In this document: one piece after another, positions 5,486 to 46,367 of the stretch
How the letters are laid out: the number at the start of each line of letters is the position of its first letter
Numbering within the stretch: position 1 is the stretch's first letter
Source: Octopus vulgaris
Taxonomy: Eukaryota
Reading direction: 5' to 3'
Length of the DNA stretch: 64,000 nucleotides
NCBI GenBank assembly: GCA_951406725.2
Contig: OX597838.1
Coordinates: 3,968,001 to 4,032,000, forward strand
The notes under the pieces: generated by a model
What the model saw: only the letters and a program-made list of their open reading frames with translations
What the model was told of the DNA's origin: nothing
Database searches by the model: none
Program-made: the position numbers and the translations under genes

Positions 5486-5492
<7 letters not shown>

Positions 5493-5558
5493 TGGCCCAA
5501 TGGATAAGGCACTGGCTTCCTAAGCCGGGGTTTGCGGGTTCCAGTCTCGTCGCAGGTA
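5486..5558 (+). pseudogene. tRNA-Arg(CCT)-like pseudogene
   Basis: TGGCCCAATGGATAAGG (D arm), CTGGCTTCCTAAGCCGG (anticodon CCT at 5519-5521) and GCGGGTTCCAGTCTCGT (mutated T arm). The 5' acceptor strand is replaced by (CA)n. Confidence 0.75.
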
Positions 5559-19544: not shown

Positions 19545-20130
19545 AGGAACAAGCCCCGGGAACAGACTCTCCCTAAAGAACAGACTTTCAGGAAACAACG
19601 CTCATAATGGAATAGACTCTGTGTAAGGAATACTCTCAAGAACTGATTCTCTCTATGGAACAGACGCTTAGAAACTGACTCACTGGAACAAGTTCTCTCT
19701 CTAAAGTACAGACTACCAGGTGCAGATTCGCTCTAAAAACAGACTCTCAGGAACAGACCCGCGGAAACTGACTCTCAGGAACAAGTTCTCTCTAAGGAAC
19801 AGACATTCGGGAACTGAGTCTCAGGAACAGATTCTCATGGACAGACTCTCAGAAACTGACTCTCAGGAACAAGTTGTCTTTCTTGAACAGACTCTCAAGA
19901 ACAAACACAGAAACTGACTCCCAGAAACAAGTTCTCTTTAAAGAACAGGCCCTCGGGAACTGACTCTCTGAAACTGTCTCTCGACTTTCAGGATCAAGCT
20001 CTGTTAAAGAACTGACTCTCAAGGACAGACTCCCTCGAAAGAGCAGGCTTTCTCCAAAAAAAAAAAAACAGGGTCTATCTAAAACAAAAAGAAAACACTT
20101 TCTAAAGAATACACTCTAACGACGTAACAT
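19545..20130. repeat. Degenerate minisatellite of ~14-16-bp GGAACAGACTCTCA / GAAACTGACTCTCA units
   Basis: Many imperfect copies of AAC(A/T)GACTCT(C) in tandem. Confidence 0.8.
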
Positions 20131-29401: not shown

Positions 29402-29580
29402 GTTAATCCAAACAAGAAAGCACAAAAAAACACAACAACGCGAGGACGTGGAACAAATATAGTATTATTGGACGCTCAGGAAGGAAGGGAAGAAGGAGGG
29501 TTTAACGTTTCGAGCGGAACTCTTCGTCAGAAACATAGGAGAAGGAAAGATCCAGAGAAGGGAAGACAGAGGAAAAAAAA
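29402..29580 (-). mobile_element. Penelope-like terminal fragment with a minimal hammerhead at 29500-29534
   Basis: GUUU-CUGACGA-A-GAGuuccgCUC-GAA-ACGU-U-AAAC; inserted in (TA)n. Confidence 0.75.
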
Positions 29581-30899: not shown

Positions 30900-31100
30900 A
30901 CCTCGTGTGTACCGTTGGCGATTTTTTTTCCTCTGTCTTCCCTTCTCTGGATCTTTCCTTCTCCTATGTTTCCGACGAAGAGCTCCGCTCGAAACGTTAA
31001 ACCCTCCTTCTTCCCTTCTTTCCTGAGCGTCCAATAATACTTTATTTGCTCCACGTCCTCGCGTTGTTGTGTTTTTTTTGTGCTTTTTGTTTGGATTAAC
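30900..31100 (+). mobile_element. Penelope-like terminal fragment with a minimal hammerhead at 30968-31002
   Basis: GUUU-CCGACGA-A-GAGCuccGCUC-GAA-ACGU-U-AAAC; inverted copy of 29402-29580. Confidence 0.75.
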
Positions 31101-38189: not shown

Positions 38190-38224
38190 GTATAACGTTT
38201 CGGACATAGTTCTTCATCGGATAC
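38190..38224 (-). ncRNA. Minimal hammerhead motif, CCGAUGA core variant
   Basis: GUAU-CCGAUGA-A-GAACuauGUCC-GAA-ACGU-U-AUAC with a perfect 4-bp stem I. Confidence 0.6.
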
Positions 38225-43345: not shown

Positions 43346-44202
43346 TACTACTACAAAAACAATAAAACGACATCGGAAATTACGTCAAGAACAACACGTT
43401 ATGATATTGATGATGATGATAATACGAAGAATGATGACGATCATGATCATGATGACGAAGATGACGACGACGACGACGATAGTGATCCGTCATGTGACCG
43501 TCAGGGTAGAAGGGACAGCCGCACAGGATTGCCTGCCCCGGCGAGGTGTCTTTCAGCATCATTTTTTAGGTTTATTATTACATAAGATAGGCGTATGACC
43601 TCATATTTCATGAGAGGGAGGGACGGAGGAAGAGGGTGAAGAGGAGGAGGTGTGTTTCAGCACGGTGGTAGTTTTGGGTTGATGACGATGTTACTGGTGG
43701 TGGTGGCAGTGATGTTGATGGTAGCGGTGGCGGCGGAGTGGCAGCGGCGTTGTTGTTATTGTTGTTGTAGTTGGTGGTGGTGGTGGTGGTGGTGGTGGTG
43801 GTTGTGGTGGTGGTGGTGGTGGTGGTGGTGGTGGTGGTGGCAGTGGTTGTGGCAGCGGAGGCGGTGATGGTGTATTTAAAGGTGATATCCTTGTTTTAAA
43901 TTTAAAAAAAAACAGAAATAATAATTTTGAGAAAGAAAAAAAACGAAACAAAGTCGAACCAAATAAACAAAACAAGCATTTATAATCGTCATCATAAAAA
44001 AAGGGGGCGGGCAGCAGGGTAAATGAAAGAGAGAGAAAAAAACACAAGGAAAAGAAGAAACAAAAGGGAGAAAGAATAGGGCTCAGGAAACTTCTAAAGG
44101 GAATAAATGATCAGAGTTGATGAGTTGTTTTGGATAGGTCTATACATTTAGAACAAGAATTTGACTTTGTACACGCACATACGCACCTCTGTGTGTGCGT
44201 GT

Positions 44203-44235
<33 letters not shown>

Positions 44236-44246
44236 TGTGTGTCTAC

Positions 44247-44338
44247 CAATGTAAGAGTATTGACATCCTTAGTTACGTTTAGTTGACGACTATAATTCTC
44301 CTTTACGGTTTAACATTGTAACTGGCTGTTTATATTAA
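44247..44338. repeat. Left 92-bp direct repeat flanking the hammerhead array
   Basis: Ungapped match to 45825-45916; my hand count gives 75/92 identical. Confidence 0.85.
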
Positions 44339-44408
44339 CCTTTGTATACGCATTAGCAATCTGCTAAATCATTCATAAATTTTTATGGCAAAAACATATA
44401 TTCTGTTT

Positions 44409-45742
44409 GGTGAGGCAGCCCGGAATCTGCCGAACGAGCTGGCCTTACTGACGATGGCTACGGAAATAGCTGAAACTGACCGGCCAGTCTTAGGAATTCT
44501 CGGTTCGGTGTTCTCTGGTAGGTGAGGTAGCCCGGAATCTGCTGAATGAGCTGGCCTTACCGACGATGGCTACGGAAATAGCTGAAACTGACCGGCCAGT
44601 CTAAGGAATTCTCGGTTCGGTGTTCTCTGGTAGGTGAGGTAGCCCGGAATCTGCTGAATGAGCTGGCCTTACCGACGATGGCTACGGAAATAGCTGAAAC
44701 TGACCGGCCAGTCGAAGGAATTCTCGGTTCGGTGTTCTCTGGTAGGTGAGGTAGCCCGGAATCTGCTGAATGAGCTGGCCTTACCGACGATGGCTACGGA
44801 AATAGCTGAAACTGACCGGCCAGTCGAAGGAATTCTCGGTTCGGTGTTCTCTGGTAGGTGAGGTAGCCCGGAATCTGCTGAATGAGCTGGCCTTACCGAC
44901 GATGGCTACGGAAATAGCTGAAACTGACCGGCCAGTCTAAGGAATTCTCGGTTCGGTGTTCTCTGGTAGGTGAGGTAGCCCGGAATCTGCTGAATGAGCT
45001 GGCCTTACTGACGATAGCTACGGAAATAGCTGAAACTGACCGGCCAGTCGAAGGAATTCTCGTTTCGATGTTCTCTGATAGGTGAGGTAGCCCGGAATCT
45101 GCCGAACGAACTGGCCTTACTGAGGATACCTACGGAAATAGCTGAAACTGACCGGCCAGTCTTAGGAATTCTCGGTTCGGTGTTCTCTGATAGGTGAGGT
45201 AACCCGGAATCTGCTGAACGAGCTGGCCTTACCGACGATGGCTACGGAAATAGCTGAAACTGACCGGCCAGTCGAAGGAATTCTCGGTTCGGTGTTCTCT
45301 GGTAGGTGAGGTAGCCCGGAATCTGCTGAATGAGCTGGCCTTACCGACGATGGCTACGGAAATAGCTGAAACTGACCGGCCAGTCTAAGGAATTCTCGGT
45401 TCGGTGTTCTCTGGTAGGTGAGGTAGCCCGGAATCTGCTGAATGAGCTGGCCTTACTGACGATAGCTACGGAAATAGCTGAAACTGACCGGCCAGTCAAA
45501 AGAATTCTCGTTTCGATGTTCTCTGATAGGTGAGGTAGCCCGGAATCTGCCGAACGAACTGGCCTTACTGAGGATACCTACGGAAATAGCTGAAACTGAC
45601 CGGCCAGTCTTAGGAATTCTCGGTTCGGTGTTCTCTGATAGGTGAGGTAACCCGGAATCTGCTGAACGAGCTGGCCTTACCGACGATGGCTACGGAAATA
45701 GCTGAAACTGACCGGCCAGTCGAAGGAATTCTCGGTTCGGTG
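44409..45742 (+). ncRNA. Tandem array of 12 x 112-bp units, each with a type I hammerhead ribozyme fold (retrozyme-like)
   Basis: Unit: CCUUA-C(U/C)GA(C/G)GA-U-(G/A)GCUA cggaaa UAGCU-GAA-ACUG accggc CAGU-C-(U/G)AAGG. Units start every 112 bp from 44409 and the last is truncated to 102 bp; no ORF. Confidence 0.85.
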
Positions 45743-45824
45743 CTCATGACGATTGCAGCCCCAATCAGAAATACATGCTATGTGCTTTATAACAGCATTG
45801 GTGCATTTCAGCTCTTATTTCAGG

Positions 45825-45916
45825 CAATGTAGATGAATTGACACCCTTTGTCACATTTAGTTGACAACTAAAATTCTCCTTTACAGATGAACATTGTTAC
45901 TAGCTCTTTTTATTAA
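45825..45916. repeat. Right 92-bp direct repeat flanking the hammerhead array
   Basis: CAATGTA..TTGACA.CCTT..TTTAGTTGAC.ACTA.AATTCTCCTTTAC..AACATTGT..TATTAA is shared with 44247-44338. Confidence 0.85.
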
Positions 45917-45932
45917 TACACACACACACACA

Positions 45933-46004
<72 letters not shown>

Positions 46005-46331: not shown

Positions 46332-46367
46332 TCTTCTGATGAATGACCAGCGTCCGAAACGTTAAGA
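46332..46367 (+). ncRNA. Minimal hammerhead motif in a Penelope-like fragment (~46280-46450)
   Basis: UCUU-CUGAUGA-A-uGACcagcGUCc-GAA-ACGU-U-AAGA with a perfect 4-bp stem I. Confidence 0.7.

Follow-up and report, generated by a model that had tools for sequence, protein, structure and literature searches.

Can a row of ribozymes, each of them apparently damaged, still cut itself because every unit borrows from its neighbour the part that it lacks? A tandem array of hammerhead motifs in the genome of Octopus vulgaris raises this question. The original prediction was that the array is a 448-bp higher-order repeat, with catalytic cores and cleavage sites divided between adjacent units, and that it could release a 448-nt product. 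We consider it probable that it is something humbler: a minisatellite in decay, lodged in a retrozyme-like insertion of some age and enlarged once, recently, by a duplication of 448 bp, and not a functional higher-order repeat. The array lies in a stretch of 64,000 nt (assembly GCA_951406725.2, contig OX597838.1, positions 3,968,001–4,032,000, forward strand), referred to here as the window, and all coordinates below are window positions. The sequence is animal-like, and microsatellites are very abundant in it; a diverged tandem array at 19632–19897, of period 14/46, differs from the microsatellites that neighbour it.

The array and the element that contains it

The 12 units are spaced exactly 112 bp apart, and an outward walk at lag 112 places the edges of the array at 44402 and 45745, exactly 12 × 112 bp. 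Any two units differ, on average, by 5.4% (mean identity 94.6%, range 90–100%). The core letters are CUGA in units 1, 6, 7, 10 and 11, and CCGA (the change U4C) in the remaining seven of the 12. The letters 3' of the cleavage triplet GUC vary more: UAAGG in units 2, 5 and 9; UUAGG in units 1, 7 and 11; GAAGG in units 3, 4, 6, 8 and 12; and AAAAG in unit 10. The CUGA and UAAGG units had been predicted one by one, and on recount the list was correct. The units are mosaics. Among units 1–8, all four combinations of letters occur at seven pairs of variable sites; five of these pairs include a CpG, and repeated mutation could account for them. CpG deamination at neither site explains the pairs 44456 × 44490 and 44456 × 44491, and these combinations suggest, therefore, that sequence has been exchanged between units.

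Units 5–8 recur as units 9–12, just as predicted. At lag 448 the match spans 44772–45297, with three differences in 526 bp (45050/45498, 45053/45501 and 45295/45743), so that the blocks differ by 0.6%, compared with the unit mean of 5.4%. When the order of the units was randomized, a four-unit block as alike as this one turned up in 1674 of 200,000 trials (p 0.008). The predicted cut sites of units 5 and 9, after 44937 and 45385, are likewise where they were said to be, 448 apart. In higher-order satellite repeats, alpha satellite for example, a multi-unit block is repeated at an identity above that among the monomers. The octopus block has this much in common with them, that its copies are more alike than its monomers are, but many-fold reiteration is missing: the block occurs only twice, and a single duplication event suffices to explain it.

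The element around the array is older. The 92-bp direct repeats at its ends, 1578 bp apart, differ at 17 positions (18.5%) without gaps, and from their separation we infer a parent period of 1578 − 11 × 112 = 346 bp, a value that comes from this one locus with its 1.27 units. A unit of 346 bp is of typical animal retrozyme size. Divergence at the locus forms a nested time series (18.5% for the terminal repeats, 0–10% for the units and 0.6% for the 448-bp blocks), and the three levels fit insertion, then local expansion, then recent duplication. Could the 92-bp repeats be a target-site duplication instead? This was ruled out, because the sequence from 44300 onward is multi-copy in two sets of DNA contigs (X2 and X11, below) and accompanies the hammerhead in other copies. 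The borders of the element, where microsatellites of opposite orientation are found, (TG)n on the left (44167–44242) and (CA)n on the right (45917–45980), show no evident target-site duplication. No reading frame of at least 120 aa overlaps 44247–45916, and a bacterial promoter scan, uninformative for an animal, found nothing.

Features of the locus, in window coordinates, with the basis for each
Feature	Position	Strand	Basis
Old member of a dispersed, retrozyme-like repeat family with a hammerhead, ~1.27 parent units	44247–45916	+	Terminal repeats; copies elsewhere
92-bp terminal direct repeat, first copy (parent unit start)	44247–44338	+	81.5% identity to 45825–45916
Parent sequence upstream of the amplified segment	44339–44401	+	Single contigs elsewhere span it and the hammerhead (X11 and X2)
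Tandem array, 12 × 112 bp	44402–45745	+	One type I hammerhead motif per unit; 90–100% unit identity
Unit 1 hammerhead	44429–44509	+	Constrained folds; descriptor match
Core 1/site 2, predicted pairing (cut after 44601)	44443–44606	+	2.2 kcal/mol in the pair, 2.7 in units 1–4
448-bp (four-unit) duplication, two copies, recent	44772–45745	+	3 differences/526 bp at lag 448; breakpoints not exactly placeable
Core 6/site 5, predicted contiguous cross-unit hammerhead (cut after 44937)	44933–45038	+	4.1 kcal/mol, cheapest of 11 constructs
Core 10/site 9, predicted hammerhead, duplicate of core 6/site 5 (cut after 45385)	45381–45486	+	4.1 kcal/mol
Parent unit, remaining part 3' of the hammerhead	45746–45824	+	Right-flank consensus of family contigs
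92-bp repeat, second copy (start of next, truncated parent unit)	45825–45916	+	Pair comparison with 44247–44338

The hammerhead motif and the division of its parts

Constrained folds make a type I hammerhead available to each unit. Stem I has five inner base pairs and, past an internal loop, some ten pairs more; the core has one additional U, ahead of a 5-bp stem II with a 6-nt loop 2; and stem III is 4 bp with a 6-nt loop (hairpin −2.0 kcal/mol). The core CUGANGA…GAAA…UH, the three stems, and the open ends of stem I place it among the type I hammerheads, and other hammerheads, too, leave a base unpaired between positions 9 and 10.1 (PMC4209133). In unit 1 an internal loop interrupts the extended stem I, the core reads CUGACGA with the extra U, and a 5-bp stem II, GAAA and a 4-bp stem III with its 6-nt loop complete the motif; its GUC site lies at 44489, after which the cut would fall, and the second pair of its stem I is a U-U mismatch. 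A descriptor of the full type I hammerhead matched 11 of the 12 units, had no matches in 40 shuffles, and found nothing outside the array on either strand of the 64-kb window. Rfam gave no hammerhead match at gathering score in the window and none to E 10 in 44300–45900; its SNORD65 matches (17–18 bits, against a threshold of 41) were dismissed as chance. Elsewhere, at 5486–5558 (+), a tRNA-like match of 31 bits is barely over the Rfam threshold; the acceptor stem is unpaired, and it is probably a tRNA-derived repeat.

In the type I phase, no unit of the 12 combines the canonical core with a fully paired inner stem I. The pair 10.1–11.1 is G-U in eight units and A-U in four, and in none is it G10.1–C11.1. 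The A-U that replaces G-U in units 6 and 10 looks compensatory, yet it is a single event common to units 7 and 11. The 14-mer of stem III is one base short of a palindrome, as predicted, in all 12 units. What might such changes cost? U4C 'considerably decreases activity in vitro' but leaves viroid infectivity possible (PMC3088659); since activity is lowered rather than abolished, units 2, 5 and 9 may retain slow self-cleavage. Rate is most sensitive to mismatches in stems I and III at their innermost pairs (PMC8495972), and the GAAGG, AAAAG and UUAGG units are marked down for this reason.

Underlying the original prediction was the claim that no unit has both the CUGA core and UAAGG, the perfect partner in stem I. 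Counted in the type I phase this is true (0 of 12), but it is within chance: for five CUGA and three UAAGG, the probability of no overlap is 0.16 with 12 units, and 0.36 with the eight independent units that are left once the duplication is removed. A UAAGG unit directly before a CUGA unit, similarly, is found in 64% of the random orders of units 1–8. The claim is also phase-dependent. If monomers are taken from cut to cut, the UAAGG strand and the CUGA core are both present in two of the 11 (44938–45049 and 45386–45497), and so the split depends on where the units are delimited. It is best read as chance decay.

A dispersed family

Four of 24 runs (X2, X5, X6 and X11) were aligned, at 80% likeness, to the interval 44300–44520 only. 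Family contigs at least 80% alike number 178 in X2 and 224 in X11, both DNA runs, and those under 90% alike number 136 and 164. Single contigs join the left flank to the hammerhead (for example, X11 records 2–3 and X2 records 9–10), and others, 15 in X2 and 18 in X11, leave the unit at 44513 and continue into the right flank, where their consensus agrees with 45746–45775 at 20 of 30 bases. Because left flank, hammerhead and right flank occur together elsewhere, they make up a single dispersed family, and the 112-bp tandem arose by amplification inside the element. The 112-bp junction is present in two of the 224 X11 contigs and in none of the 178 from X2 (2/402 in all); these contigs lose collapsed repeats, those of X2 are without the array's own CCGA units, and other 112-bp arrays may be missed. 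The longest contig record covers about 1.5 units. As far as contigs show, then, the 112-bp tandem would seem to belong to this locus alone. X2 coverage is absent at 44516–44520; given that the contigs were filtered and that the data comprise about 80% of the run, this is not evidence of absence. In X11, which carries a different organism label, the locus is present with seven differences in 221 bp; thus the array is not brand new, and it predates the split if the two labels stand for different species. Exact pattern scans of metagenome and viral contigs gave no matches.

The family differs from the array at two informative places (depths are summed across contigs and do not represent copy numbers). 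At 44471, position 11.1, the majority letter is C (28 and 37 contigs; depth 1762/2465 in X2 and 1856/3220 in X11), which gives the family majority the canonical G10.1–C11.1 pair; all 12 units have U. At 44484 it is T (34 and 50 contigs; 2723/2845 and 2642/3050), with which the 14 nt of the family's stem III form a perfect palindrome; C stands here in every one of the 12 units. Since every unit departs from the majority at both places, the array stems from one copy that was already without both features. C at 44449, the U4C change, has a depth of 0/2661 in X2 and 0/3246 in X11, and so CCGA is derived. The family letters were read up to 44484, and the letters just 3' of the cut site lie outside that range.

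Some further variation within the family deserves mention. An A-to-G variant in stem III, at 44479 in unit 1 numbering, occurs in 16 contigs in each DNA run and preserves the pairing, its G facing the U that most copies have at 44484 in a G-U pair. Downstream of the ribozyme (45746–45762), the family consensus opens with a 5-bp G+C hairpin, the 5' arm of which is damaged at the locus. Four contig joints link the left flank, 44341–44387, to the hammerhead, 44458–44481, two on opposite strands and two by skipping 80–93 bases, and hence rearranged family copies exist elsewhere. Many family contigs (13–15 in X2, 11–14 in X11) diverge from the window at 44401–44405, and the amplified segment therefore starts where subfamilies differ.

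The remaining two runs are RNA by guess only. In X5 there is one contig of 142 nt and depth 5.45, which amounts to one 112-nt cycle with a CCGA core; in X6 there are two short contigs, of depth 2.4 and 3. With the X5 contig, a CCGA unit joined head to tail is confirmed from a second data set. A circle and a tandem array would give identical cyclic contigs, and so it is no proof of transcription.

By its anatomy the family is likely to belong to the animal non-LTR retrozymes, whose units are 350–390 bp in Mytilus galloprovincialis and 330/350 bp in axolotl (Cervera and de la Pena 2020, PMC7229834), and 150–450 bp in animals generally (PMC7229834). Like these it is dispersed and multi-copy (the 178 and 224 contigs), non-coding (no frame of at least 120 aa), and equipped with a type I hammerhead, with an inferred unit of a few hundred bases in a partial tandem layout; minimal Penelope-type hammerheads, moreover, are found in the same genome. 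Unlike them, the locus has only 1.27 parent units, and its tandem part is an internal sub-repeat of 112 bp, below the 150–450 bp range; among the family contigs over 44300–44520, neither full tandems of the parent unit nor RNA circles were seen. Nor do the predicted circles show the stable, high self-pairing of retrozyme RNAs: against 60 shuffles each, the joined parent (z −0.23) and the best 112-nt circle (z +0.84) pair no better than random, values that describe the local, decayed copy only. A 2026 preprint (10.64898/2026.07.22.740005) links retrozymes to Penelope-like elements, gives units of 51–972 bp, discusses a model in which arrays of retrozyme units become satellites by unequal crossover, and reports cleavage by one of nine genomic dimers tested. 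We found no description in the literature of this family or of a hammerhead higher-order repeat, with the proviso that supplements of earlier surveys may list the family; the sections consulted of PMC2808323 and PMC8557442 hold nothing on it.

Predicted folds and the origin of the array

How well might the units fold, singly or together? We express the cost of a hammerhead as the ensemble energy with that hammerhead enforced, relative to the free ensemble, in a nearest-neighbour model. The model is without tertiary contacts, magnesium or an active-ribozyme control, and only the ranking of the costs deserves weight. Seven unit types were folded singly, along with nine of the 11 adjacent pairs, four windows of four units and 11 contiguous constructs. 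Left unconstrained, the full hammerhead is the best structure of none of the 12 single units, and to enforce it costs 5.8–17.9 kcal/mol among the seven types. The double hammerhead is better than two single folds by 8.6–10.9 kcal/mol in all nine pairs, and so partner exchange is general to the repeat and not special to units 5–6, which have the cheapest double fold of the nine. Cross-unit folding is thus favoured in the model, and in the family majority stem III is a true palindrome.

In the four-unit windows, the cheapest intact folds are core 1 with site 2 (2.7 kcal/mol), core 6 with site 5 (3.6–3.9) and core 10 with site 9 (4.4), compared with 7.1–24.4 for own-unit folds; cores 7 and 11 have a C-C mismatch in stem II and cost at least 14.8 with any site. 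The predicted action of cores 6 and 10 on sites 5 and 9 survives to the extent that both are among the three cheapest intact folds, but in a growing transcript these two sites are reached at similar cost by rival U4C cores, those of units 4 and 8 (5.8 against 6.4, and 4.9 against 4.2). The 448-nt product of an organized split is not supported: core 1 with site 2, a pairing absent from the original prediction, is as good or better, and adds a 336-nt piece (44602–44937). Competent cross-unit folds account for some 0.1–1% of the model ensemble. That neighbouring units should cut sites 2, 5 and 9 is, in the model, physically plausible. Putting in the family majority letters lowers the cost of the single fold from 5.8 to 1.4 kcal/mol in unit 2 and from 8.0 to 3.1 in unit 3, and raises it in unit 6, from 6.6 to 7.6. 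The stem III duplex is worth −25.9 kcal/mol when palindromic and −15.7 as it stands in the array.

Dimeric folding through a palindromic stem III is known for motifs in which that stem is very short (PMC4209133, PMC6765202 and PMC6155905). In the double hammerheads of newt and axolotl, ASBVd and Penelope-like elements (PMC7229834, PMC4209133 and PMC6765202), a palindromic stem III/loop III lets two tandem copies exchange strands, and each core cuts the site of the other copy. The octopus units, whose stem III is one base off a palindrome and perfect with the family majority letter, would be open to the same exchange, and their dimer is stabler than two monomers in the secondary-structure model. 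Those motifs, however, have a stem III of 0–2 bp and need dimers, whereas here stem III is 4 bp with a 6-nt loop (5 bp with a 4-nt loop, given the family majority letter), so a monomer fold is possible, and the partners are non-identical, damaged copies. Closer in some respects is pDo500, a satellite of Dolichopoda cave crickets in which hammerhead stems vary among copies and for which single and double forms have been proposed (PMC2837043). Its double form unites two different repeats, so that changes in one copy could be compensated in the other; the idea of compensation between copies, as such, was therefore already voiced by the pDo500 authors. Both are tandem satellites with stem-variant hammerheads. 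The cricket satellite has units of about 500 bp, occurs in many species and bears signs of constraint, whereas ours is one locus of 12 units with mostly damaging changes; and the double form of pDo500 exchanges stems I and II, rather than stem III.

The history that we favour, that of a decaying minisatellite, would run as follows. It would begin with the insertion, in the distant past, of a partial tandem from a dispersed, non-coding family (non-LTR retrozyme-like, ~346 bp) that carries a type I hammerhead. The 112-bp segment with the ribozyme was then, it seems, amplified in place to 12 units at the level of DNA, by unequal crossover or slippage, from a founder that already lacked the G10.1–C11.1 pair and the stem III palindrome. 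Later mutations would have arisen in separate unit lineages, U4C in one and stem I mismatches in others, and been shuffled among units, the final large event being the duplication of four units. If the array is transcribed, the near-palindromic stem III would permit partners to be swapped as in the known double hammerheads, and the likeliest residual cuts, at sites 2, 5 and 9 by the folding model, would probably be slow and incomplete. We infer the order of events, and likewise the folding preference. Counting against decay are the two originally predicted pairings in the folding top three, the 112-nt cycle in X5, and the majority letters that fail to help unit 6.

Suppose, instead, that transcripts of the array are cut by neighbouring CUGA cores, chiefly at sites 2, 5 and 9, into RNAs of 336 and 448 nt, and that the four-unit block has been kept because an RNA of retrozyme size is thereby restored. 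The three cheapest intact folds are the very ones that this would call for, double folds beat single ones in every pair folded, 336 and 448 nt are near the 150–450 bp quoted for animal retrozymes (PMC7229834), and dimeric cleavage is established for axolotl retrozymes. We nevertheless think this functional complementation very improbable: the core/site split is within chance, the block exists in two copies only, competent folds are a small part of the ensemble and have U4C cores as rivals for the same sites, and the array is without the family palindrome, with the weaker stem III duplex that results.

The 112-bp unit might, alternatively, be a minimal retrozyme in its own right, a 112-nt circle whose rolling-circle reverse transcription gave a concatemer that was then inserted, and whose units cut as monomers. 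There is a whole hammerhead in the unit, with a 4-bp stem III able to close on itself; the X5 contig is one 112-nt cycle; and retrozyme consensus lengths are reported to go from 51 bp upward (10.64898/2026.07.22.740005). But the array sits in register within the parent, with parent sequence on either side; its units differ by up to 10%, through shared mosaic variants and not scattered copying errors; the junction is rare in DNA contigs; and a cyclic contig is equally expected from a tandem array. An origin of this sort is unlikely. So, in our estimation, is the possibility that the array is real but that the 448-bp duplication, or the order of the units, is an artefact of assembly. Blocks that differ at just three of 526 bases, and contig records that cover at most about 1.5 units, are what would arouse such suspicion; the difference at 45498, however, is G-to-A at a CpG, as would be expected of a true later mutation, and the head-to-tail junction is found in X5 and X11 as well.

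To specialists, neither dimeric hammerheads nor decayed copies will, by themselves, be a surprise. As a decaying minisatellite, the locus nonetheless shows, in three layers that can be dated, how the part of a mobile element that holds the ribozyme becomes a minisatellite within it, and it contributes a family of hammerhead repeats whose palindromic stem III is unusually long. It offers, too, a natural test bed for complementation between non-identical tandem hammerheads, with most core/site combinations present within 1.3 kb. The most daring reading, drawn from the folding model and to our minds a long shot, would have damaged ribozymes complementing each other naturally by strand exchange through stem III, giving RNAs of 336 and 448 nt, with the 448-bp block a retrozyme unit in the making. 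Were complementation true, these two lengths would fall in the size class of the parent retrozyme; and if complementation determined how long the RNA product is, this would provide a route by which the unit length of retrozymes could change.

Four minimal hammerheads of the Penelope type also occur in the window, at 29500–29534 (−), 30968–31002 (+), 38190–38224 (−) and 46332–46367 (+), as opposed to none in 30 shuffles. They have a 4-bp stem I, an extra A after the core and a palindromic stem III of two pairs, they are unrelated to the hammerheads of the array, and two of the four have a CCGA (U4C) core. The first two are near-identical inverted copies about 1.4 kb apart; the last lies some 420 bp downstream of the element.
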